DNA of 64,000 bases from Candidatus Xenobia bacterium (GTDB taxonomy: Bacteria; Vulcanimicrobiota; Xenobia; Xenobiales; QWHO01). The notes beneath the pieces are model-generated. The model did no database searches. It saw only the letters and a list, made by a program, of their open reading frames with translations, and had not been told where the DNA came from. Each line of letters begins with the position of its first letter. The first letter of the stretch is position 1. Below are positions 1,189 through 33,020 of this stretch, piece by piece. Location of the stretch: positions 88,621 to 152,620 of the forward strand of contig BTUM01000004.1 of the NCBI GenBank assembly GCA_045863235.1. The letters are read 5' to 3'. The position numbers and the translations under genes were made by a program.

Positions 1189-1191
1189 GCT

Positions 1192-2772: not shown

Positions 2773-2920
2773 GGTGGCTGAAAAGCGAGCTGCACCCCAT
2801 TCCGGCCAAGAAACGCAGGTGCAGCGGGAGGAGCAGTTGCGTGCCCCGCTCATCTTGTTCCGCTCGTTGAATGGCGATTCCTTCCCAGGGGAGGATTCCC
2901 CCCACGGGGAATTAATGCAA

Positions 2921-2991
2921 GCGTAGCGCGCAGCGAGCTTGCGAGCGAAGTCACGAGGTGTGCGTAGCGCGTAGCGAGCTTGCGAGCGAAG
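2921..2991 (+). repeat. Tandem direct repeat (2 x 30 nt, 29/30 identical, 11-nt spacer) in the 5' region of the AAA+ ATPase operon
   Basis: gcgtagcgcgCagcgagcttgcgagcgaag (about 2921-2950) and gcgtagcgcgTagcgagcttgcgagcgaag (about 2962-2991), ending roughly 15 nt before the SD (ggaaaaggag) and ATG at 3005. A 7-bp inverted repeat ATTCCCC-ccac-GGGGAAT lies just upstream at about 2896-2913. Confidence 0.5.
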
Positions 2992-3004
2992 GAAAAGGAG
3001 TCCC

Positions 3005-3847
3005 ATGTCGGCCGAGAAGTCCACCACCCCCCAGACCGTCGAAATCGACGGAGTGACCCTGCACCTGACCCACCCCGACGAGCTGCCCATCAAGTGGGTC
3101 GGGCAAGACGACCTGATCGCCCAACTGCTCGCCTCCTGGGTCGTGCTCGAGCAGCGCGACCTGCCTCTCAACCCGCGCCTGCTGGGCAAGCCTGGAGTGG
3201 GCAAGACCACCCTGGCCTACGCCGCCGGCAAGAAGATGGGGCGTGAGGTGTACCTGTTCCAGGCCACCATGGATACCCGCCCCGAGGACCTGATTATCTC
3301 GCCCGTGGTCTCGGCCGAGCAGTCGATCCGCTACGTAGCCAGCGCCGTGGTCACGGCCATGGTGCGCGGCGGAGTGCTGATCCTGGACGAGGGCAACCGC
3401 ATGAGCGAGAAATCGTGGGCCTCCCTGGCCCCCCTGCTGGATGCCCGCCGCTACGTCGAGTCCCTGGTGGCGGGCATCAAGGTCAAAGCCCACCCAGAAT
3501 TCCGCTTCTGTGCCACCATGAACGACGACTCCTCCACCTTCGAGCTGCCCGAGTACATCCACTCGCGCCTGCAGCCGCAGATCCTGGTGGACTTCCCCGA
3601 CAAGGACGAAGAGCTCTCGATTTTGCAGGAGAACCTGCCCTTCATGGACCTGGCCGTCCTGAGCTATGTGGCCGACTTCCTCCAGCGGGCCCACCGGGCC
3701 GACGAGCGCTACTCGGTGCGCGACGGAATCAACATCGCCCGCTACGCCGGAAAGATCGGCCGCGAGCTGGGTCTGGAGCCCCCGGTGGCCCTCAAGCGAT
3801 CGATCGCCCAGGTGCTGGGAGAAGAGGCGCTGGTGTATGGGCCGTGA
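3005..3847 (+). CDS. MoxR/CbbQ/NorQ-type AAA+ ATPase (AAA_5-like)
   Basis: 280 aa. Walker A is LLGKPGVGKTTLAYAAG, Walker B is GGVLILDEGNRM. Its size and motif spacing are typical of MoxR-class chaperone ATPases. SD ggaaaaggag lies 6 nt upstream of the ATG. Confidence 0.8.
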   Translation: MSAEKSTTPQTVEIDGVTLHLTHPDELPIKWVGQDDLIAQLLASWVVLEQRDLPLNPRLLGKPGVGKTTLAYAAGKKMGREVYLFQATMDTRPEDLIISPVVSAEQSIRYVASAVVTAMVRGGVLILDEGNRMSEKSWASLAPLLDARRYVESLVAGIKVKAHPEFRFCATMNDDSSTFELPEYIHSRLQPQILVDFPDKDEELSILQENLPFMDLAVLSYVADFLQRAHRADERYSVRDGINIARYAGKIGRELGLEPPVALKRSIAQVLGEEALVYGP

Positions 3848-6047: not shown

Positions 6048-6415
6048 TGCTCTCGCTGCGCTGGCCCCGGCTCTGCAGGCTGGTGGAGAAAGCGGGTACG
6101 ACCCCGGTCTGGCTGCACGGACGGGTGCTCCGGTTGCGCGAGGAGACGGGCGAGTACGAGGGCGACCACCAGTATGCCGGCCACCTCGACTGGCACTTTG
6201 CCGAGGTGCTGGCCCGGGTCGTGAGCCTGAGCCGGCTCACCCCCCAGGGGCCCGACGAGCCCCTGCCGGCGCCCCGAGATGTCACCGTCAACTTCGACCC
6301 CTTCCCGGACGGACTGCGCTCGGGAGTGGAGTTCCGGGTAGCCGGACGGCTCTTTCCCGACGGCCGCATCGAGCCCGTCACCGAGAGCCTGGAGCTGATC
6401 AAGCGCGAGCAGTGA
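6047..6415 (+). CDS. Small hypothetical protein (122 aa), translationally coupled to the upstream gene
   Basis: The GTG start at 6047 overlaps the TAG stop of the upstream gene by 1 nt (TAGTG). The product MLSLRWPRLCRLVEKAGTTPVWLHGRVLRLREETGEYEGDHQYAGHLDWHF... has balanced composition and no recognisable domain. Confidence 0.45.
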   Translation: MLSLRWPRLCRLVEKAGTTPVWLHGRVLRLREETGEYEGDHQYAGHLDWHFAEVLARVVSLSRLTPQGPDEPLPAPRDVTVNFDPFPDGLRSGVEFRVAGRLFPDGRIEPVTESLELIKREQ

Positions 6416-6468
6416 AGCCGAGTCCGGCAGCGAGGGGAACTCCGCGAAGAAAGCAGAACCCCGCCGGG

Positions 6469-7122
6469 ATGGAGTTCGATGACCAGCGCCTGGGTGAGCG
6501 TCTGCGCCAGGCCCGCGAGGCGCGCGGCTGGAGTCTTTCGGAGCTGGCCGCAGGGGTAGGCTACCCACCCGAGATGGTGGCCGAGTGGGAGAGCGGCCAA
6601 CGCTCCCTCAAACCCCGTCTGCTCTATCGGCTGGCCCAGGTGCTGGGTACCCCCGTGGCCCGCCTTTTCGACGAGGACGAGAACCGCTTCATCCCCTGGA
6701 ACCCCAATACCGGACGGCTGGACATCTGCCTTCACTGCGGCGCCCGCGAGCACGCCGCCGAAGCTGCCCACTGCAGCGAGTGCGGCTACCAACTGGAGAC
6801 TTCACAGTGCACTGGCGAATTGGAGGATGCCTACCTGGGCATGTCCCGGCCCTGTCTCAACCTGATCCCCCCCGGCCAGATGCACTGCCAGAACTGCGGC
6901 ACCCCCTCGCTGTGGGCCGAGCTCTCCGACCGCCTGCCCCGGCGCGGCCTGCATGCCGTGGAGGGATTGGTGGAGGCTCCCGCTCGGGGCGAGCTGGAGC
7001 TGGCCCTGGAGCGGCTCGAGGAGCTCGAGCATGGCCTTCGCGAGGTGCGCCTGCAGCTCGAGCGTCTGGCCGGCCGGCCGAGCAAGGTGGAGCGCAGTTC
7101 ACATCCTGACGCAAAGCGTTAA
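6469..7122 (+). CDS. XRE-family HTH transcriptional regulator with two zinc-ribbon motifs and a C-terminal coiled coil
   Basis: In-frame ATG at 6469 (the track ORF 5773..7122 has an Arg/Pro-rich leader artefact). The HTH region is LGERLRQAREARGWSLSELAAGVGYPPEMVAEWESGQRSL. Zinc-ribbon-like pairs are CLHCG...HCSECG and CLNL...HCQNCG. Confidence 0.7.
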   Translation: MEFDDQRLGERLRQAREARGWSLSELAAGVGYPPEMVAEWESGQRSLKPRLLYRLAQVLGTPVARLFDEDENRFIPWNPNTGRLDICLHCGAREHAAEAAHCSECGYQLETSQCTGELEDAYLGMSRPCLNLIPPGQMHCQNCGTPSLWAELSDRLPRRGLHAVEGLVEAPARGELELALERLEELEHGLREVRLQLERLAGRPSKVERSSHPDAKR

Positions 7123-7182
7123 CACGCCCCAGGCGGGTTCTGGCTTAGAGTCGCCCCATCTCAGAGAGGACGACTCAGACCA

Positions 7183-7686
7183 ATGCAGATCAGCCAGCTG
7201 ACCACCTATAACCTTCCCCGGACCGCCAACGCTCCCGTGGCGGGGAAGTCCGCGCCTCCGGTTCAGGAAGAGCCGGCGGACCGTATTGAAGCATTTTACA
7301 CCGGGGCGGCCAACACCGCCAAGTGGATGTCGCGCATCGACGGCGCCGTACTCGGCGGCGTCATCGGGCTGGCCGTGGGCGCCACCGTGGGGGCAGCCGT
7401 CTTCGGAGCCGGCGGGACCGGAATGGGCTCCTTCCTCATCGCCAGCGGTCTGGCCGTGGGCGGCGGTGCCGGCGGCTACACCGCCTTCGACCGGCTGAGC
7501 GCCTTTGGCGGCAAGATCGGCCGGGGCCTGGACGAGGGCAACGACCTGCGCGGCGAGGCTCTGGGCCGGGTGGGCGTGAACATGGGCCTCAGTCTGCTCG
7601 CGGGCAACTGGCGAGCGGTGGCCCTGAACGCCGCCATCCCGCTCGTCGGTGGTGCCGTCAACTACGCCCTGGCTGGCGATCGATAA
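7183..7686 (+). CDS. Small glycine-zipper-like membrane protein
   Basis: 167 aa with Gly/Ala-rich hydrophobic stretches (GGVIGLAVGATVGAAVFGAGGTGMG...LAVGGGAGGY). A T8 run follows the stop. Confidence 0.5.
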   Translation: MQISQLTTYNLPRTANAPVAGKSAPPVQEEPADRIEAFYTGAANTAKWMSRIDGAVLGGVIGLAVGATVGAAVFGAGGTGMGSFLIASGLAVGGGAGGYTAFDRLSAFGGKIGRGLDEGNDLRGEALGRVGVNMGLSLLAGNWRAVALNAAIPLVGGAVNYALAGDR

Positions 7687-7722
7687 GCTTTTTTTCAGTC
7701 CGGGGGGGCACACTCTGCGGGT

Positions 7723-16594: not shown

Positions 16595-17735
16595 CGCGCC
16601 GGTCGAAGGCCGGAAAGACAAGGCCGCTGGTCATCACGATCAGGGCCACGCCGCAGAACATCAGAGGATAGCCCAGGTTCTGGGCGAGCACGCCCGAGAG
16701 CACCGATCCGGCGAAGCTGCCCACGTCGATCCAGGCGGTGATCAAGGCCAGGGCCGTGCCGCGCACGGCCGCCCCCAGGCGCTGCACGGCCAGGGCCGAA
16801 AGGGCCGGATAGAGGATACCGTGCCCGGCCCCGGCCAGCAGGCCGGTGCCCACCAGAATCCAGGACTCGCCCCTGCCGAGGAGGGCGAAGAGGCCCATTC
16901 CCCCCGCCTGGAGCAAGAGCGCCGAGGGGATGATGGACTGGGGCCCGTGGCGATCGGAGGCCGAGCCCATGGCCAGGCGGATCAGCACCGAGCTGAAGGT
17001 GTAGCAGGCGAACATCAGCCCGACGCCGGTCAGCTGCTCTTTGGCCGCGAAAGGAGCGGCGAAGCCGTAGAGGCTACCGACGGCGTAGCCGAACCCGAGC
17101 GAGCCGAGGGTGACGGCGAGCATGAGCTTCGACCGCAGCAACTGGAAGAAGCGGCTGTCGTCCTGAGTTTCGTGAGGGGAGCGGTGAACTTCGGGCAGGG
17201 TCAGAAAGCCGGCCGCAGCCGTGAGGCTGAGCCCTGCGGAGAGGGAGAACATGGCCTGAAAGCTGGTCCGGTCCACCAGTAGCTCGCCCCCGACCGGACC
17301 GATGGCGCCCGCGAGCAGACCCGAGATGCCGAACAGTCCGAAGGCCTGGGCCAGCCGTCCCGGCGGCGCCTGGTCGGCGATCCAGGTGAAGAGGGCGGTG
17401 AAGTAGGTGGAGACCACGAAGCCCTGCAGCCCCCGCAGCGCCACCATGGGGATCAGCGCCACGGGAACGACGAGGAAAGCCAGGGCGGTCAGGCCGATCA
17501 GGAAGGCACCTCGAAGGATGTAGGGACGCCGACCGTGTCGGTCCACCCGGTGGGCGAGCCAGGGTTGCGAGAGCACGGCGCCCACCCAGTAGCCGCCCTC
17601 GGCGGTGCCGATCTCCCAGGGCTGCAGGCCCTGCTCGGCCAGGTAGCGGCCGGTGAGAACGAACATACTGGCGCCCGAGAGGCAGATCAGGTTGAGGAAG
17701 GTGCCCCACCAGAAGACGCGGCGATAGTCCTTCAC
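16581..17735 (-). CDS. MFS transporter
   Basis: About 12 predicted TM segments, including motif-A-like GRYLAEQG...DRHGRRPYI. The GTG start at 17733-17735 overlaps the TGA stop of the upstream gene (GTGA). The track ORF extends to 17819, but that N-terminal extension overlaps the CinA gene. Confidence 0.7.
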   Translation of the reverse strand: MKDYRRVFWWGTFLNLICLSGASMFVLTGRYLAEQGLQPWEIGTAEGGYWVGAVLSQPWLAHRVDRHGRRPYILRGAFLIGLTALAFLVVPVALIPMVALRGLQGFVVSTYFTALFTWIADQAPPGRLAQAFGLFGISGLLAGAIGPVGGELLVDRTSFQAMFSLSAGLSLTAAAGFLTLPEVHRSPHETQDDSRFFQLLRSKLMLAVTLGSLGFGYAVGSLYGFAAPFAAKEQLTGVGLMFACYTFSSVLIRLAMGSASDRHGPQSIIPSALLLQAGGMGLFALLGRGESWILVGTGLLAGAGHGILYPALSALAVQRLGAAVRGTALALITAWIDVGSFAGSVLSGVLAQNLGYPLMFCGVALIVMTSGLVFPAFDRRATRP

Positions 17736-18187
17736 TCGTCGAGAGCCTCGCGCAAGAGCTGCAGGGCGGCCTGGACGGATTGCTGGCGAATCTGGTCGCG
17801 ATCGCCCTGGAAGAGGCAACGCTTTGTCTGCGTTGTCCGCGGGCCCGCAAGGCCCAGGAAGACCAGGCCCACGGGCTTGTCAGGGGTCGCCCCGCCGGGA
17901 CCGGCGATGCCCGTAACGGACAGAGCCCAGTCGGATTCTGCTTGCCGGCGAGCACCCTCTGCCATGGCGGCGGCGCACTCGGCGCTGACGGCCCCGTGCT
18001 CTTGCAGCACTTCCTGGGGGACGTTGAGCAGGCTGGCTTTCAGCTCGTTGCAGTAAGCCAGGATGCCGCCTTTGAAGTAGGCCGAGGAACCGGCCTGGCG
18101 GGTGAGCTCGGCTCCGAGCAGGCCGCCCGTGCAAGACTCGGCCACGGCCACGGTCTGGTGGCGTTCGATCAGGCGTTGAGCGGGCAT
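17732..18187 (-). CDS. pncC: CinA C-terminal domain protein (PncC-type NMN deamidase)
   Basis: In-frame ATG at M33 of track ORF 17732..18283. The product MPAQRLIERHQTVAVAESCTGGLLGAELTRQAGSSAYFKGGILAYCNELKASLLNVPQEVLQEHGAVSAECAAAMAEGARRQ...WALSVTGIAGPGG is the stand-alone CinA_C fold. Confidence 0.75.
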   Translation of the reverse strand: MPAQRLIERHQTVAVAESCTGGLLGAELTRQAGSSAYFKGGILAYCNELKASLLNVPQEVLQEHGAVSAECAAAMAEGARRQAESDWALSVTGIAGPGGATPDKPVGLVFLGLAGPRTTQTKRCLFQGDRDQIRQQSVQAALQLLREALDE

Positions 18188-18254: not shown

Positions 18255-18851
18255 TTACTTGCGCACCTTGATGCGCACGCCACCCAGGGTCACCGCGGCC
18301 TCGTCCACCTGAACCACGGTCGGGTTGCTCTTGAGACTCCCGCTGATTCCCTGGACCAGGGCGGCTTCGGCGGCCTGGACATTCTGCCTGGAGGCGGCCA
18401 CGGCGGCCTCCAGTCCCTGCTTCTCCTGCTTGAGGGCGGGCAGCACCGCTTTGTCGATCTGCATGGGCAGCACCACGTGCTTCATGGCCATGATGTAGCC
18501 GTAGGTCAGCCCGGCCCCGCCGGCCAGACCGATGATGGGGTTCATCCCGCTGAACATGGCCCAGGCACCCAACCCGGCCATCGAAAAGATGCAAAGGTGC
18601 GCGGCGATGCCGCTGTGCAGCTTGACGTTCTTATTCCACATGGCATCGCGCACCTGGTTGTTGCAGTGATGGGTGCGATGGCGCCGCGAGCTGGAGATCC
18701 AGTAGTTCGTATCGTCGAGTCGCCGCTGAAAGGTCTCGAGCTGGCTTCTGGCCGATCTCAGGTCGGACTCGGCCTTCTCCACCTCGGGGTTCTTCACCGA
18801 GCCCTCGAACAGCCCTGAGGCTCGGACAGGCAGTGTGCTGGTGAGGTTCAT
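18255..18851 (-). CDS. Hypothetical membrane protein
   Basis: ATG at M10 of the track ORF (MNLTSTLPV...). It has a hydrophobic block GIAAHLCIFSMAGLGAWAMFSGMNPIIGLAGGAGLTYGYIMAM and a coiled-coil-like N-terminal half. Confidence 0.45.
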   Translation of the reverse strand: MNLTSTLPVRASGLFEGSVKNPEVEKAESDLRSARSQLETFQRRLDDTNYWISSSRRHRTHHCNNQVRDAMWNKNVKLHSGIAAHLCIFSMAGLGAWAMFSGMNPIIGLAGGAGLTYGYIMAMKHVVLPMQIDKAVLPALKQEKQGLEAAVAASRQNVQAAEAALVQGISGSLKSNPTVVQVDEAAVTLGGVRIKVRK

Positions 18852-19073
18852 GCAGTGAGAATACCGAGGGCTCCTCAAAGAAAGCTGACACTCACTCGTT
18901 GTGGCGGTCGGCGTCGGGGGCGAGCTTCGAACGACGGATCCCGCGGTGGATCCGAACGAGCGTTCGTTTACGCCGGAAAAATCTTCTTAAATTTATCGAC
19001 AAAATCGAATATACGTTTGCCAGGGAATTCAAGAAATTTAACGAACAGGCTCCAACGAAAGGAGTCAACTCTC

Positions 19074-20468
19074 ATGGAACAACTGGCACAGTATCTCGAG
19101 CTCCCGGATGAAGAGCTCTGCCGGCAGGCAAAGACCATGCGTCGTCAGGTGGACCGCTCATTGTGGAACCTCGGGCTCTACCTGGTCGCCATTCAACAGC
19201 GAAAGCTCCACCGAGCGAGGGGCTGCAGCGGGGTCATCCAGTTCGCCGTCCGATATCTGGATCTGGCGCAGCAAAAGGCCTACGAGCTTCTGCGCGCGAC
19301 TACTTCTCTGCTTGAGACGCCTCTCCTGGCCGAGGCGTTTCGAGATGGAAAAGTTTGCTGGGGAAAGATCCGCGAGATCACCCGGGTATCCACCAGTGCG
19401 GATGAGGCTTTCTGGCTCGACTACGCCCTCCACCACGATTGTGACGAAGTCCAAAGGCGCGTTTCAGTCAGTCCGCGCCGCTTCAAAGCTCTGCGCCGCC
19501 AGTCGGACAGCCACGGCCTGCCAACCGAGAGACAGCCAGCGCAGGGTGGGCTTCTCGCCTCCGACCTGGAAGCCAACGGCGCGGCAGGCGTCCACTCAGA
19601 AGCACCCCAACCAGCTTACCAGTCACTGGCCCAACAGCAGTTCCAACCTCAGCACCATGCCCGAAACCAGCCTCCAGGCTCTGCAGAGCCACCGGTCGGG
19701 CGAGTCAAACTCGTCTTCTACCTCACTGCGGAAGAATTCGCCCTCTACGAGAGAGCCGAGGACCGGGTTCGCTCCCAGCGGGGCCGGCGCTTGCCGCGCA
19801 ACAAGGTGCTGATCGATCTGGCCGAGCATCGACTCAGCGATGCCAGGAGTGAGGCCCGAGCACGGCTGCCCATCCTGGTGCGGGTGGACGCCAGTACCGG
19901 CCAGGGATGGTATGACACCAGACTTGGTCTGCTTCCGGCCACGGCTGCACAGATCGAACAGGCATTGACCTCGGCTCTGGCGGTCACGACCGAGGGAATG
20001 CCGCCAGGCCCGGACCTTGGTGCAACAGGCCCGGACCTGCGTGCAGTGTCAGGCCATGCTCAGGGAGACAACGGCCCGATCCCTGGGACAGCCCCACCCA
20101 CTTGCCACCTGACCGATTCTGCACTCCCACAGGTGCCCGATAAACCTGACGAGGGACCTGGCCAGGCATCCAGGAAGAAACGGTCCTCCCGGAGGCGACG
20201 GAACATCAGTCTTGCGACCATACGGGCTCTGATGCTTCGCGCCGGCGGCAAGTGCGAGAAACCAGGCTGCAATCGTGGCGGTGCTCTCCACGTTCATCAC
20301 CAGAGACCGGTGAGCGAAGGTGGCCAGGACGGACTGGCCGACCTGCGCCTCTACTGCTCGTCCTGCCACGGGTTGGAGCATGAGCCCGACTTCGAGCGCA
20401 AGCCGGGCTGGCATGAGGCTCGTGAGCACAGACGTGGAGGCAAGACCGACCGCTGCGACAGCAGCTAA
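19074..20468 (+). CDS. HNH endonuclease with N-terminal DUF222-like domain (13E12-repeat family type)
   Basis: ATG at 19074 with SD aaaggag 9 nt upstream. It follows an AT-rich leader (aaaaatcttcttaaatttatcgacaaaatcgaatatacg...). The N-terminal pattern GCSGVIQFAVRYLDLAQQKAYELLRATTSLLETPLLAEAFRDGKVCWGKIREITRV resembles DUF222. The C-terminal HNH is CEKPGCNRGGALHVHHQRPVSEGGQDGLADLRLYCSSCHGLEHE. Confidence 0.7.
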   Translation: MEQLAQYLELPDEELCRQAKTMRRQVDRSLWNLGLYLVAIQQRKLHRARGCSGVIQFAVRYLDLAQQKAYELLRATTSLLETPLLAEAFRDGKVCWGKIREITRVSTSADEAFWLDYALHHDCDEVQRRVSVSPRRFKALRRQSDSHGLPTERQPAQGGLLASDLEANGAAGVHSEAPQPAYQSLAQQQFQPQHHARNQPPGSAEPPVGRVKLVFYLTAEEFALYERAEDRVRSQRGRRLPRNKVLIDLAEHRLSDARSEARARLPILVRVDASTGQGWYDTRLGLLPATAAQIEQALTSALAVTTEGMPPGPDLGATGPDLRAVSGHAQGDNGPIPGTAPPTCHLTDSALPQVPDKPDEGPGQASRKKRSSRRRRNISLATIRALMLRAGGKCEKPGCNRGGALHVHHQRPVSEGGQDGLADLRLYCSSCHGLEHEPDFERKPGWHEAREHRRGGKTDRCDSS

Positions 20469-20477
20469 AGCGAAAAC

Positions 20478-20520
20478 AAGCAAGAAAGCCGACCTGGTCG
20501 GGCCGGCCTTCTTGAAACCA
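20478..20520. terminator. GC-rich hairpin between the convergent HNH and acpP genes (candidate bidirectional terminator)
   Basis: caagaaagccgacctggtcgggccggccttcttg. The outer arms caagaa/ttcttg and the inner CCGACC/GGTCGG and GGCCGGCC are self-complementary. No clear U-tract is present. Confidence 0.3.
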
Positions 20521-20534
20521 GGCGCGCCTGAATG

Positions 20535-20783
20535 TCAGGCGGTCTGCTCGGCGACGCGCTTCTCGATGTACTCGACCGCCTCGGTGATGTTGCGGATCTT
20601 CTCGGCATCCTCATCGGGGATCTCGAGATTGAACTCGGTCTCGAAGGCCATGACCATCTCGACCGTGTCGAGCGAGTCAGCGCCCAGATCATCTACAAAC
20701 GAGGCGGTGGGAGTCACCTGCTCGGCATCCACCCCGAGCTGCTCTACGACGATTTTCGTCACCCGCTCCTGGACGCTAGCCAT
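20535..20783 (-). CDS. acpP: Acyl carrier protein
   Basis: ATG at M45 of the track ORF. The product [82 protein letters not shown] carries the phosphopantetheine-site DSLD motif. Confidence 0.9.
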
Positions 20784-20889: not shown

Positions 20890-21657
20890 CTAAGGCCGCA
20901 TGACCATTCCACCATCGACGTTAAATACCTGCCCGGTGATGTAGCCCGAGCCGGGAGCGGCCAGAAAGGCCACCAGACGGGCGACCTCCTCGGGTTCTCC
21001 CAGCCGACCGGCGGGGATCTGGCCGAGCAGGGCTTCCCTGACCTTCTCGTCGAGCACGCCGGTCATCTCGGTCTGAATGTAACCGGGCGCCACTGCGTTC
21101 ACGGTGATGTTGCGGGAGGCCACCTCCCGGGCCACCGCCATGGTAAAACCGATCAGGCCGGCCTTGGAGGCGGCGTAGTTGGCCTGGCCCGCATTCCCCA
21201 TCTGGCCCACGACGGAGGTGATGTTGATGATGCGTCCATAACGCTGCTTGAGCATGACCCGACTGGCCGCGCGAGTCAGGTAGAAGGCCGAGGTCAGATT
21301 GGTGTTCAGCACCTGAGCCCAATCCTCGTCTTTCATGCGAAGCAACAACGTATCGCGGGTGATGCCAGCATTGTTGACCAGCACGTCCAGGCGGGGCAGG
21401 GCCTTGATGCAGGCGTCCACGGCCGCTGCGTCGGTGACGTCGGCCGTGTGCACGCTGGACTTGCCCCCGATGGCAGCGATGACGCCGGCCACCTCCTCGA
21501 GCTGCGCCTGGGTGCGCGACAGCAAGGCCACATCAGCCCCCAGGCGGGCAAGCTCCAGAGCGATGGCTCGTCCGATGCCGCGACCGGCACCGGTCACCAG
21601 GGCAACCTGATCCTTCAAAATGGGCTCGGCCGCCAGGGCCAGGGTTGCGGTTTCCAT
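20890..21657 (-). CDS. fabG: 3-oxoacyl-[ACP] reductase
   Basis: ATG at M56 of the track ORF. Rossmann motif [20 protein letters not shown], and the SDR catalytic YxxxK within ...[13 protein letters not shown].... It sits between fabD and acpP. Confidence 0.9.
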
Positions 21658-21667
21658 AGAGGCCTCC

Positions 21668-22612
21668 TTACGAAACGGGGGTCTGCAAGAGCTCGAGGCT
21701 CTTCTCCAGGCTGGCCACGTCGGCCACGTTGGCGGTACGCACCTCCTTGGAGATCTTCTTGACCATGCCGCACAGGGCCGAGCCGGGGCCGACCTCCACG
21801 AAGGTGTCGATTCCGGCTGCAATCATGGTCCGCACCGAGTCCTCCCACAGCACGCGCGAGACGATCTGGAGCTTGAGGGCATGACGCAGCTCCTCGCCCG
21901 TGGTAACGGGCTGAGCGCTGTAGTTGGCGACCAGCGGCACGGCCGGGTCGGCGAAGCTGTGCCCATCCAGGTCCACCGCCAGACGCCCGGCAGCGGGCTG
22001 CATCAGCGAAGAGTGAAAAGCCCCGCTCACGGCCAACGGCATCACCCGGCGAGCGCCAAATTCCGAAGCCCGCTCGCGGGCTGCGGCCACACCCGCGGGC
22101 GAGCCCGAGAGCACGATCTGTCCTGGACAGTTCAAATTGGCCACTTCCACGACTCCGGCGGCTGAGACGGCCTGGCATAGAGCCTCCGCCTGGGCCAGCT
22201 CAATGCCCAGCAGCGCCGCCATGGTGCCAGGAAGCTCCTGGCCCGCCGCCTGCATGTGCTGACCGCGCTTTCGCACCAACATGATTGCGTCAGCCGGGGA
22301 AACCGCCCCGCAAGCCGCCAGGGCAGCATACTCGCCCACGCTGTGGCCGGCCACCATGGCAGGCGAGAGTCCGCGCTCGCGCAACACCGCCAGCGCAGCC
22401 AGGCTGTGAGCCACGATGGCCGGCTGGGTGTGCTCGGTCTGCTTGAGTTGCTCTTCCGGACCCTCGGCCATCAACTGCGAGAGAGGATAGCCCAGCCGCT
22501 GATCGGCCTCCTCGAGCACGGCGCGAGCGGCCGGGAAGGCAGCCGCCAGGTCGACGCCCATGCCGACGTATTGAGCTCCCTGACCGGGAAACACGAACGC
22601 TATGCGGGACAT
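21668..22612 (-). CDS. fabD: Malonyl CoA-ACP transacylase
   Basis: ATG at M142 of the track ORF. The product starts [19 protein letters not shown] and has the active site [14 protein letters not shown]. Confidence 0.9.
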
Positions 22613-23619
22613 AATGCCTCCTTCTTTCCCCAGCGCATGGCCACGGCTCCCCAGGAGAGCCCGCCGCCAAAGCCGACCAGCACGATCAGATCGCCATCTT
22701 TTACCCGGCCCTGCTCGCGTGCCTCCGACAGAGCCAGCGGGATGGAGCCGCAGCTGGTATTGCCAAAGCGGTCCACGTTCACGAAGACGCGCTCCATCGG
22801 CACGCCCAACCGGCGGGCGGCAGCGTCGATGATGCGCACATTGGCCTGGTGAGGGATGAACAGGTCCACGTCGTCGGGGGTGAGGCCGGCTTTGGAAACC
22901 GCGGCAGCAGCCGCCTCCCCGATGACCGAGACGGCGAATTTGAAGACCTCCTTGCCGTGCATCTGCAGGCAAAACTCCGACTTGGGAACGCCCGGCGTGC
23001 CGCCCGGAATGCGCCCTCCACCGGCCGGAACGCACAGGCTGTCTCCCCCCGAGCCATCGGCCCCGAGGTGGATCGAGAGCACGCCCTGTCCCTCCCCCAC
23101 CGGACCCAGCACCACCGCCCCCGCGCCGTCACCGAAGAGCACGCAGGTTCCGCGATCTTGCCAGTTCATCACGCGGGTCATGGTGTCAGCCCCGACCACC
23201 AGGACGTAGTCGAAGGCACCGGTACGCACGAACTGACAGCCCACCGCCATGCTGTAGGCAAAGCCCGAGCAGGCCACGTTCAAGTCGAATGCTCCCGCAT
23301 TGGTCGCCCCCAACCGGTGCTGCACCAGGCAGGCGGTGGAAGGCAGCATGGTGTCGGGGGTCATCGTGCCCACGATGATCAGACCGATCTGCTCGGGGGA
23401 GACCCCGGCGTCGGCCAGCGCCAGCAAGCTGGCCTCGACTGCGAGATCAGAGGCACAGACTTCAGGCTCGGCCATGCGTCGCTCGCGGATGCCTGTACGC
23501 GAGCGAATCCACTCATCGGTCGTGTCGAGAGTGGACTCCAGCTCCTGGTTGGTCACGATTCGGGGAGGCGCAAAATGCCCCAGCCCCACCACGCCCACCG
23601 GGCGTAGCGCGCGAGTCAC
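22600..23619 (-). CDS. fabH: 3-oxoacyl-[ACP] synthase III
   Basis: 339 aa. Active site CSGF (DLNVACSGFAYSMAVG), plus HQANVRII and the GFGGGLSWGA tail. It overlaps the fabD start by 13 nt. Confidence 0.9.
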   Translation of the reverse strand: MTRALRPVGVVGLGHFAPPRIVTNQELESTLDTTDEWIRSRTGIRERRMAEPEVCASDLAVEASLLALADAGVSPEQIGLIIVGTMTPDTMLPSTACLVQHRLGATNAGAFDLNVACSGFAYSMAVGCQFVRTGAFDYVLVVGADTMTRVMNWQDRGTCVLFGDGAGAVVLGPVGEGQGVLSIHLGADGSGGDSLCVPAGGGRIPGGTPGVPKSEFCLQMHGKEVFKFAVSVIGEAAAAAVSKAGLTPDDVDLFIPHQANVRIIDAAARRLGVPMERVFVNVDRFGNTSCGSIPLALSEAREQGRVKDGDLIVLVGFGGGLSWGAVAMRWGKKEALCPA

Positions 23620-23839: not shown

Positions 23840-24367
23840 TTAGCTTCCGTTCTTCAACTTCATAAGCGGTCCCCACCGAGGATCGATCTCCTCGCTCGGA
23901 CAGCTGCAACTTCCCTGGTTCAAGTTCGTTCCGCACTGATCGCAAAGGCCCTGGCAGTCTTCCCGGCAGAGCGGCTTGACGGGAAGTGCCGCCAGGAGAT
24001 TCTGCCGCAGGATCTCATCAAACTCGATGCGATCATCGCGATAGGTAAAGATGTTCAGGTCTTCCAGCGCGACATTCTCGTCGGCCGGCACTTCACCGCT
24101 GGCTTCGTCGATGAAATGCTCGTCCACCTCCAGGTCGAGCGGCGCGACGAAGATCTCGGCGCACCGTCCGCAGCTCAGGCGCACCCGGGCGTGGAGGTCT
24201 CCGTCCACCAGAATGCGACTGCCCACGTTGGTGAGCTTGAACTTCGCCCTGACCGGCCCTTCTAGCTCGAGGCCCTCGAAGTGAACCGGTCCCTCGAACT
24301 CAAAAGGTTTCCAGAGTCCGGTTCCCCGCTTGATATCGGATACGTCCACTCGCATCTTTGGCCCCAA
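23840..24367 (-). CDS. yceD: YceD/DUF177 family protein (23S rRNA accumulation protein)
   Basis: It lies upstream of rpmF as in many bacteria. The C-terminal cysteine cluster CREDCQGLCDQCGTNLNQGSCSC is present. An alternative start is M5 at 24355. Confidence 0.8.
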   Translation of the reverse strand: MGPKMRVDVSDIKRGTGLWKPFEFEGPVHFEGLELEGPVRAKFKLTNVGSRILVDGDLHARVRLSCGRCAEIFVAPLDLEVDEHFIDEASGEVPADENVALEDLNIFTYRDDRIEFDEILRQNLLAALPVKPLCREDCQGLCDQCGTNLNQGSCSCPSEEIDPRWGPLMKLKNGS

Positions 24368-27192: not shown

Positions 27193-27525
27193 TCAGTCAG
27201 CCAGGATCTTCTGCAACTCCCAGCGATCCAGCCACATGCCCCGGCAGGTGGGGCACACATCCACCTGGGTGGAGCGCCATTCCCACTCCTTCATGACGAC
27301 GTGGCAGCGTGGGCACTTGCGCTGGCCGGGGGGAACCGTCTTGCGCGAGTCATCGAAGGCCAGCGGTTGGAGAGCGTTCTTGGGCAGCGAGGCCAGAGTG
27401 ACCAGCAGCTCCGGCTCACCGTCGTCGAACCAGAGCCCGTCGCACAGCTCGCACTCGTCGAGTACCAGGTCGCCCAATCGAACCTCGCGCAGAGGCACCA
27501 GGCAGGTGGGGCACTCGATGTTCAT
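27193..27525 (-). CDS. Zinc-ribbon protein (TFIIB-type, COG3809-like), last gene of the flotillin operon
   Basis: MNIECPTCLVPL...CELCDGLWFD and a second ribbon CPRCHVVM...CPTCRGMW. Its start overlaps the stop of the giant ATPase gene (ATGA). Confidence 0.65.
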   Translation of the reverse strand: MNIECPTCLVPLREVRLGDLVLDECELCDGLWFDDGEPELLVTLASLPKNALQPLAFDDSRKTVPPGQRKCPRCHVVMKEWEWRSTQVDVCPTCRGMWLDRWELQKILAD

Positions 27526-30500
27526 TCAGGCGACTTCCTGGGAGTTTTGGCTTTGGAGGCAGCCACCTCGGGAGGCGGCTCCTCCAGCGGGCTGAGCGCC
27601 TCCACGCACTCGGTCAGGTTGGTGGCCGCCATCAGGCCGTCGAAGACGCGCACCAGCACCGGATCCATCACCAGAGCCTTGGATTTGGGCCCGCGCACCA
27701 GCTGAGCCAGGGCCTTGAGCTGGGGCACGACGCGCACGAACGAGTCCAGGGCCCCCGGGCCGAGGTTGAGCTGGGGCACCACCTCGGGCGCCAGAACCAC
27801 GGGTTGAGAGGAGGCCACGCCCGCCACGGGAGCCGAAGCCGCCGGCCGCTCGGCCAGCCGGGCCAGAGCCTCGCTCATTTTGTCCAGCACCGGGGAGAGG
27901 TCCACGGGAGCAGCAGGGGCGGCGGCCGCCGCCGGGGGAGCCGAGGAGGCCAGCCGGTTCAAGGACTGCCCCAGCTTCTCCAGCACCGGACCCATGTCCA
28001 CCTGGGCCGGGCGCTGCTCCGCCAGCTTCTCCAGCAGGCCCGACACCGGAGCCGGTTTCTCGCTGGCATACTCGATGCTCTGGGAGATGTCGCCCAGCTT
28101 CTCGGCCAGCACGCTGAGCAAGTTCGAGATGCGCACGGCCGGGTCGTCGTCCTTGCCGCCGGTCATCTGGCGGCGCTGGTAACCGCGCTTGATCTCGTCC
28201 CAGCGGGCCAGTTGCTCGGGACTCTGGCGGCCACGCAGCTCGGCCAGCTTGAGCAGGTTCTGCTCGGCCCCCGTGGTCAGGGTCTGGGACTCGCCCTGGT
28301 AGTGGTCGTCCACCAGGCGCTCGAGCTCGTCCTCGTTCATCACCGACGAGACCTTCTCGGCCAGCTTGTTCATGTTGCGGTAGCTGCCCTGCAGCTTGAA
28401 GGCCGGCTCGGTGCGATAGGCGTCGTCCATGCTGGCGGACAGGATGTACTGCTTGTTGATACGCAGCAGCACGGCCTGGATCTTGAGCAGCTTGGTCAGC
28501 ACCGAGCGTAGCTCTTCCAGCTCGACCGGCGAATAGGAATGGCTGAGCTCGCTGGGGGGGATCATCTCCCCCTGGGCCATGCGCACCAGCTTGTACACGT
28601 CCTCGGGCTCACGCCCCGAAAGCGGTGCCAGCACGGGGTTGGAGGTCAGAGCGTTCTCCAGGTAGCTCAGCTCGAACAGCTCCTCGCGACCCGACAGCAC
28701 GTCGCCCAGGTTGTAGGTGTCGGCGCGGTTGGCCAGCATGTCGGGGATCTGAAAGCGCGCTCCCGACTCGGTGTAAGGGTTGCCGGCCATGCAGACGCAG
28801 AAGCGCTTGCCACGCAGGTCATAGGTGCGTGTGCGACCCAGCCAGACGCCCTCGATCTTGCGCTGGGCGTCGCACAGCGAGATGAACTTCTGCAAGAACT
28901 CGGGATTGGTGTGCTGGATGTCGTCGATGTAGAGCAGCACGTTGTTGCCCATCTCCAGGCCGAAGTTGACCTTCTCGACCTCCTGGCGGGCGGTCACGTT
29001 GGGGGCCTCGTTGGGGTCGAGCGAGCTGACCGCATGGCCCAGCGCCGGCCCGTTCACCTTGACGAAAATGAGGCCCAGCCGGTTGGCGATGTACTCCATC
29101 AGGGTGGTCTTGCCGTAGCCAGGGGGCGAGATCAGCAAGAGCATGCCCATCAGGTCGGTCCGCTTGGTCTCGCCTAGCGAGCCGATCTGCTTGGCCAGGT
29201 TCTCGCCGATGAGGGGCAGGTAGACGTCGTTGATGAGCTTGTTGCGCACGAAGGCGCTCATCACTTTGGGCGTGTATTCGTCCATCCGAAGGCGCGCACG
29301 CTCGCGGGCCAGCACGCCCAGCCGCTTCTCCTGATACGCCCGAAAACCGGGCACGCGCTGGCTGCGGAAGCCCCCCAGCCGGGTCAAGAACTCGTCCAGG
29401 CGAAGCTGCATGACCCGGTTCTGGATGCGCGCGTGCTGGCCCAGCAGGCCCTGAACCGTCGCCGTGGTGGCGGCGCTGACGGTCTCTCGCTCCAGGCCCG
29501 GGGTCAGCAAGAGCACGGCCATCTCTTCTTGCACGTGCTCGGCCCGGCCGGCCTCCTTGAGCCGACCGACGAAGGCTCGCACCCAGGAGAGGGCCAGCTC
29601 GTAGCGGCGGGCAGGATCGGCCTGCAGGGCGACCAGTTGCTCGCTCAGAGCGGTGTAGAGGCGCTGGCCTTCCAGGGCCTTGATGAAGGCGTCGCGCAGG
29701 GCCGCCGCGTCGCCGCTCAGGATGAAGCGGGGCTGCGGCCTGGCCAGCTCGAGCAAGAGGTAGCTGCCTGCCTGCTCGGCTTCCTGAGGCGAGAGCTCGA
29801 GCTTGTGCAGCACGCACAGCTCGCCGATGCGCTCGCCCAGCTCGCGGGCCAGCTTCTCCTCGGCCTCGCTGGGCCCGAACATCTTGCGCATCAAGGCCAG
29901 ACTCTGGGCCTGGCGATGCCAGTGCTCGCCTTCGGCGGCCTGGTTGCTCCAGAAGTAGACGCCGGCCGCCCGGGCGGCCGGCGAGAAGCGCAGCAGGCCG
30001 GCTGAGCTGTAGAGGTAGAGCAAGCTCTCCAGAATCAGGGCCGCGTCGTGGTCGTGAATACCGCGCTCGTAGCCCTCGTCGTAGCGCTCGGCCGCCACCC
30101 CCCGCACCAGCTCGAGCAGCCCCGGGTGCACGTCGCCGTCGGGCCGGGTGGCCCCCGAGCGCAGCGTGTCGTAGAGCTTGCTCATCGAGCCCTTCTCGGC
30201 CTGGCTGAGGATGCTGAAAGCCAGATACTCGCCCCGGTAGACCTGCTCCGTCTCGCTGACCAGCTGCTGCTCCCAGAACTCGCGGGTGGACTCGAAGTCG
30301 CTGTCATGCAGGCTCTGGTAGAAGTCGGTGCCGGTGATGTGCAGGTGCATCACCCCTTCGCGCGGCACCATGGTCAGCTCGACCGCCTCGGTATTGACCG
30401 AGAACTTGTGCCGACCCAGCCGGATGACGTTGGCGCCCTCCTCGTAGATCTCGGTCTTGTCTCGCAGGGTCCGGGTGGACTCCTGGCGGGCCATCTTGAG

Positions 30501-33020
30501 GCGCGAGGCCAGCTCGTCGGCCTTAACCGGATCGCCCAGCTCGCGCAGCTTCTCCTCGATGTCGCGCACCTTCATCACCATCGGGTCGCTGGCGAAGTAG
30601 GTGTTCAGATCGTCAGGCGAGGTCATGGTGCCCGAGCGGCGCACGATGCCCTCCAGAATGCGGTCGGCCGCTCCGATCAGTTGCTGGGCTCGGCGCTGAC
30701 GCTGATCCAACAGCTGCTGGCGCTTGGTGGAGAGGGTCTTGTAGACGTCCTCGCGCTTGGTGGTCAGCTCGCCCATGAACTGCTCGTACTCTCCGAAGCG
30801 AGCCTCGAGCTCCTCGAGCTGCAGCATCAGGCGTGAGAGGGCCTGATCGCACTTTTCGGGCGAGTCGGCCAGGTTGATGGCGCTGGTGACGCTCTGGCCG
30901 AAGAGCTGGAACTGCACCCCGAACTCGGCCACCGACTCCTTCTCGCCCAGCTCCTTGCGGCGGGAAGCCATGAGGGCCCGCACCCGGTTGACCTGGCCGA
31001 GTACTTCGGCGATGCGCTCGAGAATCTGGGTGCGCACGGTGGCATCCTCGATCTTGATGCTGCCCAGCACCTCGGTGAGCAGCTCCAGCCCACTCCCGAT
31101 CTTCTCCAGCTCTTCCACCAGAGGCACCAGCTCGGTGACCTTGGCCACCTTCTCCAGCCCTGAGCCCAGCTCCTCAACCCGCTTGACATAGGGGGCGAAG
31201 GCCTGCTCACCCAGCAGGAACTGAACCGCTCTGGCGCTGATCTGATCGTAATAGCCGATGGCCTCTTGCTCGAGCCGGTTCAGCTCGGCCAGGTCAGCAT
31301 AGCGCATCTCCTTGAGGGTGATCAGATGCCCACGCTGGCGGCGCAGCGAGCCCAGCGCTTCCACATAGGAGTCCACGCTGGTCCAGTCTTCCGGGCGCAG
31401 CGACTTGACCAGGTCGAGCATGGTCTGCTGGGCCTCGCGCAAGGCTTTGAGCGCCTGGCGGCGCAGGGTCTCGACTTTGTCGAACTCCTCCAGCACCAGC
31501 TTGCCGGTCTTGCCGATCTCCTTGAGCAGGGCCAGCACGTTGCCCGACTCCTCGTGGCCCAGCCAGTGGTAGAAGTCCTCGCAGCGGGCCACGGAGGCGA
31601 TCAGGTCCTCGTAGACGGTGTAGCTCGGCCTCTGCTCGTTGACCCGACGGGCGATGGAGAGGCAGTCGGAGATTCCCCGCACGAGATCGGCGTTACCGAT
31701 CTTCTCGAGGTAGCTGCCTGTCTTGCTCACCGCGCTGGCGGCCACGTCGTCGCGCAGGAAGGGGGTGCGCCAGATCTGCATCGGATGCACCCGGGCCGGC
31801 TCCTCGTTCGCCATGCGGAAGACGACGAGCAGGCCATCGGGGTAAAGGCAGTAGCCGTGGCAGTGGATGGGGGGAGCTACCTCCTTGCGGATCAGGTTGT
31901 AGCTCATCAGCGCCGTGTGGCCTTTGTCGAGATGATGGAAGGAGTAGAGAACGTCCTCCCCGTTGGGCGAGCGGATGGCCTTTTCGAGGATCATCCCGTC
32001 AAAGGAGCCCTCGAAGGTGCGCAGGGTTCCCTCCTGCAGGTAGAAGCCGCCTGGGAAGACGATGCCGTGGTCTTCAGGGAGTTGCACGCAGGCCTGCCCG
32101 ATCGCATCGATGCGGTGGACTTCCTTGGTGCGGGTGTTGAAGACCAGGTAACGCCAGACTTGCTCGCGATAGGGCAGGATCTTGAGCAAGATGAGCACGC
32201 CCACTTTGGCATACAGGATCTGAGCGTCCTGCAGCGCCTGGTTGGGATCGTCCACCTTCTCGGAGTAGATCCCCTGGCCGTCCTCGGTGTTGTTCTCGAT
32301 CTTGACGGTCAGGTCGCCCCCCACCGTCTCCACGAACACCTCGTCTAAGATGTTGACGTGGGGGTGGCGCCCGGTCACATGCTGCTCGCGGCTGGTGACC
32401 GTCCACTCGAAGTCGTGGGAGTGAGGGAAAGTATTGTCCTGCTCGCCGCGATTGTCGACGTACTCGGCCTTGCCATCGGGGGAGACCTTCCAGCGCAGAA
32501 CCCGCACGTCGGTGATCTGGCTGCCAATCACGAACACCGCCAGCACCTTGCCCAGAATCTGGCGAACATGCAGCATGCGGGCGTTCTTGTAGTATTTGAA
32601 GAGCTCCTTGAAGTCGCGCTCGAGCAGAGGGTGGTTGAGCATGGAGCCGGGCGCGTCGGGCGCTACCGGCACGAAGTCGTAGCCGCCCTCTTCGGTTCTG
32701 ACGAAGTCGTAGAGCGAGAGCACGTCGGGCAGCGGTGTCTCGGCCTTGCGACCGTACTGGACCTCGTAGCCCACCAGCAGCTGGTTGCCCACCGAGACGA
32801 TGTCGCGCGGCAGGCAGTTCTGCTCGGTGCGGATCTTCTCGTTGCCCACCACAGCCATCTCCATGCCCCCGAACAGAGCCACGCGTTTGGAGTTGAGCTC
32901 CTCCACGCGGTTCTTGAGGACTTTGGCCTGCTCCACCAGGCGGGCGCGCAGAATCTCGTAGGCGCCCTGCTCGATCTGCGGCGGAGCCTCAGGTGGGGTG
33001 GTGGTGACCTCTTCCGCCAT
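27522..33020 (-). CDS. Giant (1831 aa) AAA+-type P-loop ATPase, flotillin-associated, function unknown
   Basis: It starts 3 nt after the flotillin stop. The ATPase core sits near residue 1290: Walker A ISPPGYGKTTLMEYIA, Walker B NVLLYIDDIQH, followed by ...CMAGNPYTE.... It has long N-terminal and coiled-coil regions. Codon usage and composition are consistent with neighbouring genes. Confidence 0.7.
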   Translation of the reverse strand: MAEEVTTTPPEAPPQIEQGAYEILRARLVEQAKVLKNRVEELNSKRVALFGGMEMAVVGNEKIRTEQNCLPRDIVSVGNQLLVGYEVQYGRKAETPLPDVLSLYDFVRTEEGGYDFVPVAPDAPGSMLNHPLLERDFKELFKYYKNARMLHVRQILGKVLAVFVIGSQITDVRVLRWKVSPDGKAEYVDNRGEQDNTFPHSHDFEWTVTSREQHVTGRHPHVNILDEVFVETVGGDLTVKIENNTEDGQGIYSEKVDDPNQALQDAQILYAKVGVLILLKILPYREQVWRYLVFNTRTKEVHRIDAIGQACVQLPEDHGIVFPGGFYLQEGTLRTFEGSFDGMILEKAIRSPNGEDVLYSFHHLDKGHTALMSYNLIRKEVAPPIHCHGYCLYPDGLLVVFRMANEEPARVHPMQIWRTPFLRDDVAASAVSKTGSYLEKIGNADLVRGISDCLSIARRVNEQRPSYTVYEDLIASVARCEDFYHWLGHEESGNVLALLKEIGKTGKLVLEEFDKVETLRRQALKALREAQQTMLDLVKSLRPEDWTSVDSYVEALGSLRRQRGHLITLKEMRYADLAELNRLEQEAIGYYDQISARAVQFLLGEQAFAPYVKRVEELGSGLEKVAKVTELVPLVEELEKIGSGLELLTEVLGSIKIEDATVRTQILERIAEVLGQVNRVRALMASRRKELGEKESVAEFGVQFQLFGQSVTSAINLADSPEKCDQALSRLMLQLEELEARFGEYEQFMGELTTKREDVYKTLSTKRQQLLDQRQRRAQQLIGAADRILEGIVRRSGTMTSPDDLNTYFASDPMVMKVRDIEEKLRELGDPVKADELASRLKMARQESTRTLRDKTEIYEEGANVIRLGRHKFSVNTEAVELTMVPREGVMHLHITGTDFYQSLHDSDFESTREFWEQQLVSETEQVYRGEYLAFSILSQAEKGSMSKLYDTLRSGATRPDGDVHPGLLELVRGVAAERYDEGYERGIHDHDAALILESLLYLYSSAGLLRFSPAARAAGVYFWSNQAAEGEHWHRQAQSLALMRKMFGPSEAEEKLARELGERIGELCVLHKLELSPQEAEQAGSYLLLELARPQPRFILSGDAAALRDAFIKALEGQRLYTALSEQLVALQADPARRYELALSWVRAFVGRLKEAGRAEHVQEEMAVLLLTPGLERETVSAATTATVQGLLGQHARIQNRVMQLRLDEFLTRLGGFRSQRVPGFRAYQEKRLGVLARERARLRMDEYTPKVMSAFVRNKLINDVYLPLIGENLAKQIGSLGETKRTDLMGMLLLISPPGYGKTTLMEYIANRLGLIFVKVNGPALGHAVSSLDPNEAPNVTARQEVEKVNFGLEMGNNVLLYIDDIQHTNPEFLQKFISLCDAQRKIEGVWLGRTRTYDLRGKRFCVCMAGNPYTESGARFQIPDMLANRADTYNLGDVLSGREELFELSYLENALTSNPVLAPLSGREPEDVYKLVRMAQGEMIPPSELSHSYSPVELEELRSVLTKLLKIQAVLLRINKQYILSASMDDAYRTEPAFKLQGSYRNMNKLAEKVSSVMNEDELERLVDDHYQGESQTLTTGAEQNLLKLAELRGRQSPEQLARWDEIKRGYQRRQMTGGKDDDPAVRISNLLSVLAEKLGDISQSIEYASEKPAPVSGLLEKLAEQRPAQVDMGPVLEKLGQSLNRLASSAPPAAAAAPAAPVDLSPVLDKMSEALARLAERPAASAPVAGVASSQPVVLAPEVVPQLNLGPGALDSFVRVVPQLKALAQLVRGPKSKALVMDPVLVRVFDGLMAATNLTECVEALSPLEEPPPEVAASKAKTPRKSPE

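Follow-up and report, generated by a model that had tools for sequence, protein, structure and literature searches.

The 64-kb stretch of Candidatus Xenobia DNA analysed here (the window, within which all unprefixed coordinates are given) contains, convergent with acpP at the end of the fab operon, a gene for a 464-aa protein with an HNH domain, and the palindromes in the leader of this gene indicate that it is most probably under SOS control. Taken as a whole, the evidence favors the reading that this is an old, conserved, low-copy gene for a fusion of a ParB-type helix-turn-helix (HTH) domain with an HNH domain, that it is accompanied by a portable leader through which it would be repressed by LexA and induced by DNA damage, and that fabF was never displaced by it; we estimate the probability of this joint reading at about 0.55. 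A preliminary description of the locus had seen here a selfish or mobile insertion of the DUF222-HNH type in place of fabF, which is mostly wrong for this locus, although multi-copy, recombinase-associated and insertion sequence (IS)-hit copies do occur in the family at large.

Leader of the HNH gene and its palindromes

The interval 18852-20534, which is the entire gap between two minus-strand genes (a gene for a 198-aa protein and acpP), contains one real gene, the open reading frame (ORF) of the HNH protein (19074-20468, plus strand, 464 aa), starting with ATG and preceded at a distance of 9 nt by the ribosome-binding site AAAGGAG (19058-19064, plus strand). This site is part of an AT-rich leader (18977-19096, plus strand), presumed to include the promoter and the 5' untranslated region, which is indeed, as described before, the most AT-rich 120 nt of the window, with 36.7% GC against 66.7% overall and 45% in the next lowest segment. 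Homologous loci (designated below by L numbers) were found by exact-protein look-ups, and across loci with proteins 38-98% identical the leader retained the invariant blocks AA.TT, AAAAT.GAA, T.G..A.GG and A.TTT..CGAA, the last of which is represented in the window by AAATTTAACGAA (19034-19045). It was conserved both in the orthologous loci and 5' of approximately 40%-identical paralogues located in unrelated contexts (L008, L012). Because it is conserved beside such paralogues elsewhere, the leader is attributed to the gene instead of the site, as a conserved regulatory region that moves with the gene and does not represent a compositional scar.

Two palindromes characterize this region. Box 1 (18953-18966, 121 nt 5' of the ATG) is a perfect palindrome, CGAAC-GAGC-GTTCG (CGAACGAGCGTTCG), and the sole perfect CGAAC-N4-GTTCG in the 64 kb. 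Its counterparts are CGAACCTGTGTTCG in L001, AGAACAAGCGTTCG in L007, CGAACGCTTGCTCG in L008 and CGAACACCTGTTTG in L012; only 3 of 50 arm positions differ, while the 4-nt spacer is different in every lineage, and such a combination of conserved arms with a free spacer is the pattern expected of a protein-binding operator. Box 2 (19006-19019, 68 nt 5' of the ATG), located 53 bp downstream of Box 1, is a degenerate palindrome with 2 mismatches, CGAAT-ATAC-GTTTG (CGAATATACGTTTG). It is likewise conserved, with the counterparts AGAATATACGTTTG (L001, L007), AGAACAAGTGCTCG (L008) and AGAACGTTCTTTTG (L012), and it centres an inverted repeat formed by TTAAATTTATCGA (18987-18999) and TCAAGAAATTTAA (19029-19041). 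The leaders of L008 and L012 contain a third palindrome. In 212 kb of DNA from the Xenobia lineage, all three perfect copies of the core GAAC-N4-GTTC were located in leaders of HNH genes. In subfamily 2, a group of metagenomic relatives with about 30% identity from a host with about 56% GC, a GTGAAC-N4-GTTCAC motif (up to 2 mismatches) is placed in the leaders at positions -80 to -90 relative to the start codon, with no further occurrence in 49 kb.

An RNA element was considered and rejected: the only consensus stem in the leader is Box 1 itself, the changes in its arms break the palindrome with none of them being compensatory, and the leader gave neither an Rfam match nor an RNA structure signal (folding z -0.28). 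Promoter candidates read by hand, for example TTGCCA-N17-AACGAA with its spacing conserved across loci, were not convincing. The 16-17 nt spacing from TTG(C/G)(C/G)A to (A/G)CGAA(G/C) is kept in the window (19017-19045) and in L001, L007, L008, L012, L027, L029 and L035; this pair does not fit a sigma-70 -10 element and may represent an alternative promoter or an operator half-site. Four subfamily-2 leaders (L027, L029, L035, L038) also have a distal palindrome at about -140, CTCAC-ACAA-GTGAG (GTCACACGTGTGAC), which is not LexA-like and resembles the parS centre (CACGTG); it may be bound by the ParB-like domain of the protein itself.

LexA as the candidate repressor

Box 1 fits exactly the LexA (Cheo-box) consensus CGAAC-N4-GTTCG, which is that of Bacillus and Mycobacterium and may not be that of the host, whose genome might even lack lexA. 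Xenobia (phylum Vulcanimicrobiota, formerly Eremiobacterota) is placed in Bacillati, to which Bacillus and Mycobacterium also belong. Because the motif equals the LexA operator of these two genera and Xenobia is a member of Bacillati, the leader is read as an SOS-type promoter/operator. The closest parallel is provided by the 13E12-family genes of Mycobacterium tuberculosis, which we take to be the DUF222-HNH genes of this organism. The M. tuberculosis LexA consensus, TCGAAC(N4)GTTCGA, resembles the B. subtilis one, and 6 of the 25 LexA peaks obtained in M. tuberculosis by chromatin immunoprecipitation sequencing (ChIP-seq) were located at 13E12-family genes, which are DNA-damage inducible (Smollett et al., PMC3381160). 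Similar to the window gene, the M. tuberculosis 13E12 genes have an SOS box of the GAAC-N4-GTTC type upstream, and LexA is bound there according to the ChIP-seq data (PMC3381160). No paper linking Eremiobacterota and LexA was found.

If the leader operates in this way, LexA dimers would occupy its operators and keep the nuclease gene off, and such tight repression would also account for the weak codon adaptation of the gene. Upon DNA damage, RecA would be activated, LexA would cleave itself and the nuclease would be made, with the ParB-like domain presumably steering the HNH domain to DNA. The HNH DNase colicins E2, E7 and E9 are LexA-regulated nuclease genes with tandem SOS boxes, and they resemble the window gene in having an HNH nuclease gene placed behind two LexA-type operators (putative in the window). 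The logic would be the same, i.e., a dangerous nuclease kept silent until DNA is damaged. In contrast to the colicins, the window gene is chromosomal, has neither an immunity nor a lysis gene, and its product lacks translocation and receptor-binding domains.

Several observations weigh against this interpretation. Neither lexA nor recA was found in the window or in the collected loci by tblastn with B. subtilis LexA and E. coli RecA queries, Pfam searches on 20 further ORFs of the window detected no SOS gene, and no classical SOS gene was present in the 64 kb or in these loci. No consensus sigma-70 promoter, to which the boxes could be related, was called in the leader. The paralogue in L018 has only a degenerate site, while L010 and L011 have lost the leader. 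The Asn of the GGxN motif, present in most of the family, is replaced by Asp (GGQD) in the window's clade, making catalytic competence uncertain. The four invariant leader blocks are not explained by LexA and, finally, palindromes are also the targets of ParB/KorB-type domains, which means that the boxes might be bound by the HNH protein itself.

The last point leads to the main rival of the LexA interpretation of the palindromes, an autoregulated nuclease whose own ParB/KorB-like domain would bind them without any LexA, either in a KorB-style self-repression or as a recognition/nicking site. The predicted N-terminal fold matches the domains of ParB, Spo0J, KorB and SopB, all binders of palindromic sites, the motif was only detected in the gene's own leaders both in the 212 kb and in the 49 kb, it differs between the subfamilies along with the protein, and the leader includes further conserved blocks not accounted for by LexA boxes. 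However, a regulon of 10-30 sites per genome is not expected to show up elsewhere in 212 kb, and the lack of further sites thus favors neither of the two readings. Moreover, with autoregulation it would be a striking coincidence that the Xenobia motif is the exact Bacillus/Mycobacterium LexA consensus and that the 13E12 genes are LexA-bound (PMC3381160). Overall, autoregulation is regarded as quite unlikely, and control by LexA is the preferred explanation for the palindromes.

Conservation of the locus and the fabF question

The order of the minus-strand operon, yceD-rpmF-fabH-fabD-fabG-acpP, followed by a convergent 464-aa HNH gene, was confirmed by the ORF and Pfam data as originally described. 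The same site, convergent with acpP, is occupied by homologues with 98% (L013/L014), 75% (L001-L006, six contigs from several samples) and 64% (L007) protein identity, so that the acpP-HNH order, taken previously for an interruption of synteny, is shared by these relatives, which largely agrees with what the preliminary description had named as its own refutation. The gene was present at the acpP site in all four related lineages seen, and the orthologous loci are flanked by the 198-aa gene, cinA, a major facilitator superfamily (MFS) transporter gene and further neighbours. The synonymous divergence (dS) between the window and the orthologous loci was 0.34 and 1.18, and the ratio of nonsynonymous to synonymous divergence (dN/dS) was 0.07-0.30 in the three folded modules of the protein and 0.5-0.8 in the linkers. 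The HNH gene has thus long been maintained by purifying selection on its folded domains, and in the window's clade it is a low-copy, vertically inherited gene.

Outgroup fab operons were obtained by FabD-guided look-ups from Candidatus Xenobium sp. (L023/L024) and from assembly GCA_022839105.1 (L025), whose FabD proteins are 54-55% identical to that of the window. Both have the order fabD-fabG-acpP-cinA with a gap of 60-85 bp between acpP and cinA, and neither fabF nor an HNH gene follows acpP in L023/L024 and L025. Because acpP is not followed by fabF in the outgroups either, nothing was displaced in the window: fabF was never at this site, and the acpP-cinA order without fabF is the norm of the lineage. 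The premise that fabF normally follows acpP does not apply to these operons, in which cinA takes that position, and the gene order of the fab operon in the window is in itself ordinary and normal for the clade. In comparison with the outgroups, the distance from acpP to cinA is 2.35 kb longer in the window, and this extra block contains the 198-aa gene and the HNH gene. Plausibly, the HNH gene entered the acpP-cinA spacer with or next to the 198-aa gene before these species diverged, and such an insertion would be old; a deletion in the outgroups is an alternative explanation for the extra block.

The fab cluster of Candidatus Xenobium (L023/L024, 7083-10774) has the order yceD-rpmF-fabD-fabG-acpP-cinA and is without fabH and fabF. 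In the 64 kb of the window, no gene of the KAS I/II (beta-ketoacyl-ACP synthase, fabF-type) class was detected by tblastn with an E. coli FabF query, and the sole condensing enzyme is encoded by fabH. The contigs of intermediate relatives (L019-L022) stop inside fabG, and contigs of several independent assemblies either begin in the HNH leader (L013/L014 at position 1, 136 bp 5' of the ATG) or end in fabG; this clustering of assembly breaks near the HNH locus possibly results from a coverage drop in AT-rich DNA or from strain variation. In L007 (10001-10096) and L016, a 501-aa gene model runs through the leader, the homologous start being at 10094. The L007 contig, CAYYHB010000087.1, is labelled 'uncultured Burkholderiales' yet is syntenic with Eremiobacterota loci, and it probably comes from a mis-binned or mislabelled metagenome-assembled genome (MAG).

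Among the paralogues, the operator part of the leader is replaced in L010 (9560-9925) and L011 by the end of a block of six hypothetical minus-strand genes; the start called in L010 (10001) is too far downstream, the homologous ATG being near 9923. The context of the L010-L012 paralogues includes Exo_endo_phos and Met-gamma-lyase genes. The paralogue in L008 is located in the neighbourhood (347-8561) of an Exo_endo_phos gene and genes for a PfaD-like enoyl reductase and a 2,200-aa KS-AT-ACP-KR synthase, which makes it a second lipid-synthesis neighbourhood for the family, probably by coincidence.

Codon usage, copy number and mobility

The HNH gene has the lowest G+C content at third codon positions (GC3, 0.68 against 0.74-0.90) and the lowest codon adaptation index (CAI, 0.44 against 0.54-0.73) among 17 neighbouring genes. 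The compositional break, on which the suggestion of a horizontal acquisition was partly based, is therefore real with respect to codon usage, but the GC3 dip is present in every orthologue and paralogue (0.69, 0.71, 0.76 and 0.78 against approximately 0.8-0.9 in the neighbours), and a recent acquisition is not supported. Because the dip persists across a dS of about 1 with no fading towards the host value, low GC3 is a property of the gene and not a mark of recent arrival; it is better explained as the gene's own property, resulting, for instance, from very low expression. Furthermore, its sequence diverges more rapidly than those of the neighbouring genes (84 and 70% nucleotide identity against 91-99% and 85-87%, respectively), mostly in the linkers.

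It has to be considered whether the gene is a selfish or mobile HNH element, i.e., a homing-type gene or a REP13E12-like repeat which was horizontally acquired after acpP and is kept there by its own mobility. The 2.35 kb by which the window exceeds the outgroups between acpP and cinA, the GC3 and CAI values below those of all neighbouring genes and the faster evolution are compatible with this possibility, as are the occurrence of the gene in at least two genomic contexts within Xenobia, with two copies in one MAG, and the distribution of subfamily 2 over four contigs of one sample, some of them with an upstream serine-recombinase remnant. However, the site has been retained over a divergence of dS about 1, all three domains are under purifying selection, the low GC3 common to all orthologues and paralogues shows no drift to the host value, and the 198-aa gene of the same extra block has host-like codons. 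Neither a target-site duplication nor terminal repeats are present: the search for flanking direct or inverted repeats around 18852-20534, proposed earlier as a check, returned only chance-level short matches (e.g., 12 nt at 92%). The HNH gene is free-standing, without an intron or intein host. The expectation of a multi-copy element was not borne out at this locus, since the 64-kb window contains no paralogue of the HNH protein and the scannable related MAGs have one or two HNH copies each; clade-specific patterns detected only 4 loci among 185,579 species genomes. Viral relatives were absent from IMG/VR and the PHROG matches were restricted to the HNH domain, and a phage origin was rejected. 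Thus, of the claimed selfish or mobile insertion, the extra DNA, the atypical codons and the multi-copy, recombinase-associated or IS-hit state of distant members stand, while a recent insertion is contradicted by the shared site, the selection and the lack of repeats and viral relatives. Maintenance by its own mobility is considered unlikely for the window gene, and an old, vertically inherited gene is preferred.

Subfamily 2 itself appears to be multi-copy. Its copies in L027 (100-250), L028, L031 (100-170) and L035 share a common upstream flank with a serine-recombinase C-terminal remnant (..ILATFAEFEADLIRHRTREGMAIAR), and sample Ga0208701 yielded four contigs with one copy each, so that in this organism the unit has the appearance of a dispersed repeat similar to REP13E12. 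In L031 (324-2976) and also in L032 and L039, the subfamily-2 HNH gene is split after approximately codon 19 by an IS21-type element, which in L031 encodes an IstA-like protein of 526 aa (1226-2806, minus strand) and an IstB-like protein of 251 aa (481-1236, minus strand). The element has several terminal repeats containing GATCGACTT, and it left the HNH leader with the first codons 2.7 kb upstream. A seemingly independent extra subfamily-2 motif located 2.7 kb upstream in L031 proved to be this same leader and was discarded.

Domain structure and family membership of the HNH protein

The Pfam HNH domain (PF01844) was recognized at residues 394-436 with 32.6 bits (cut-off 21.4) and also in 59 of 63 aligned relatives. 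In contrast, the DUF222 profile (PF02720) gave no match to the window protein at E<=0.01, nor at E<=10 for its N-terminal 300 aa. It matched 12 of the 63 family members at E<=0.01 (best 2.9e-6), and residues 18-140 of the paralogue P0004 align to profile positions 6-126 with 16.5 bits, below the cut-off of 24.4. Of the original DUF222-HNH label, the HNH domain and the length of 464 aa are correct, while the link to DUF222 is transitive only, through these 12 relatives; on the basis of profile scores, the family is placed as a distant branch of the DUF222-HNH proteins without recognized membership. A word-indexed search of 5.8 billion proteins recovered 8 related clusters only, one of them named Candidatus Xenobia, and a profile search of 1.84 billion representatives resulted in 137 matches at E<=1e-30, mostly full-length, and 2,347 at E<=1e-10. 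Most members of this large family are unannotated.

The 63-sequence alignment was used to build an AlphaFold2 model (pLDDT 80, pTM 0.70), in which disordered linkers separate three confident modules: a helical, ParB/KorB-like DNA-binding domain at the N-terminus (aa 1-146, 19074-19511, plus strand), a middle alpha/beta domain (aa 205-300, 19686-19973, plus strand) and a zinc-finger HNH domain (aa 375-461, 20196-20456, plus strand) with C394, C399, H408, H409, C428, C431, H432 and H436. The first was assigned by structural match, its predicted fold corresponding to the solved DNA-binding domains of ParB, Spo0J, KorB and SopB. The HNH module has the beta-beta-alpha-metal fold with the catalytic His and the CxxC/CxxC-type zinc site present; the residue before LxLxC is variable in the family. 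According to this model, the gene product would be a three-module nuclease, combining a ParB/KorB-type HTH and a conserved middle domain with a CCCC-zinc-finger HNH catalytic domain. Within disordered linker 2, at 20005-20045, 21 nt are duplicated in tandem (CAGGCCCGGACCTTGGTGCA / CAGGCCCGGACCTGCGTGCA), and at precisely this point P0001, the 98%-identical protein, is shorter by 7 residues, indicating an indel polymorphism in a nearly neutral linker.

The layout with a helical N-terminal region and a C-terminal HNH domain in about 400-500 aa is REP13E12-like, and the DUF222/REP13E12 proteins of M. tuberculosis (Rv0515, Rv0336, Rv1702c, Rv2100, Rv1588c and others) share the helical N-terminus and the zinc-finger HNH domain with the window protein. 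The latter differs from them in scoring below any DUF222 level, in belonging to Vulcanimicrobiota instead of Actinomycetota, and in having a distinct conserved middle domain and long disordered linkers; furthermore, REP13E12 is a repeat family of about 10 members, whereas the HNH gene of the window is single or low-copy at a conserved chromosomal position. The similarity to ParB, Spo0J, KorB and Noc is limited to the DNA-binding domain, with an identity of just 9-18%, and in contrast to these proteins the window protein has this domain fused to a nuclease and no recognized N-terminal CTP-binding ParB domain.

Compared to the McrA-type and phage HNH endonucleases (EcoKMcrA, ScoMcrA, GVE2 HNH, Gme HNH), the window protein has other N-terminal modules and no modified-base reader domain, and its gene is not located in a phage terminase/cos context. 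A type IV (McrA-like) restriction enzyme or another anti-phage defence nuclease is suggested by the annotation of P0001 and P0008 as '5-methylcytosine-specific restriction endonuclease McrA' in one source and by the resemblance of the HNH domain to EcoKMcrA and ScoMcrA. Since the similarity is confined to this domain, the N-terminus being ParB-like and not an McrA modified-base reader, and since no defence-island neighbours were seen, this possibility is very improbable; a defence system was considered and rejected, with no PADLOC match being obtained.

Neighbouring genes

The genes of the fab operon, all on the minus strand, were assigned by Pfam and orthologous gene calls: yceD (23840-24367), fabH (22600-23619), fabD (21668-22600), fabG (20890-21660) and, as the last gene, acpP (20535-20783). 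Between acpP and the convergent HNH gene, a G+C-rich hairpin of 14 pairs followed by a T-rich tail (20481-20514, minus strand) represents the acpP terminator. On the other side, divergent from the HNH gene, the 198-aa gene (18255-18851, minus strand; GC3 0.87, host-like codons) encodes a hypothetical membrane protein. It is the second gene of the lineage-specific block separating acpP from cinA and is limited to the window's clade (94% and 84% identity), being absent from the outgroups. It is followed by cinA (17732-18187, minus strand), encoding the C-terminal, PncC-type domain (Pfam CinA, 1e-60).

Elsewhere in the window, the second most AT-rich 120 nt (15101-15220, 45% GC) lies in a short spacer from the end of a 652-aa gene (13098-15056, minus strand) to a hexapeptide-transferase gene (15205-15750, minus strand). 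A 1,832-aa protein, whose orthologue has DUF3686, DUF7902 and AAA domains, is encoded at 27522-33020, and an unusually long MutS2 of 1,079 aa (MutS_V, MSSS, Smr) at 44782-48021.

Biological significance

LexA-controlled HNH genes of the DUF222 type are known, and what is new is the variant at this locus in Xenobia. Few genes of M. tuberculosis are bound by LexA and induced by damage as strongly as the 13E12/DUF222-HNH genes, which have no known function; a divergent relative in an uncultured phylum repeats the same design of a nuclease behind an SOS-type box. The conservation of the operator-containing leader across paralogues and subfamilies, together with the ParB/KorB-like domain, suggests that control by DNA damage was already present in the ancestor of the family and is essential to it. 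A more far-reaching proposal, possible yet rather doubtful, is that the ParB-HTH/HNH proteins form a widespread unrecognized superfamily, in which DUF222/13E12 would be the actinobacterial branch, defined by a GAAC-N4-GTTC type operator in a portable leader and acting as a conserved cross-phylum SOS-induced site-directed nuclease. Its size is estimated from full-length matches to more than 130 clusters (50% identity) and from thousands of more distant relatives. If true, its role might be in damage-triggered recombination or repair, or in an SOS-timed selfish spread. Box 1 would be the first candidate LexA operator for Vulcanimicrobiota, and the DNA-binding domain together with the candidate sites provides a concrete handle on the function of these nucleases.

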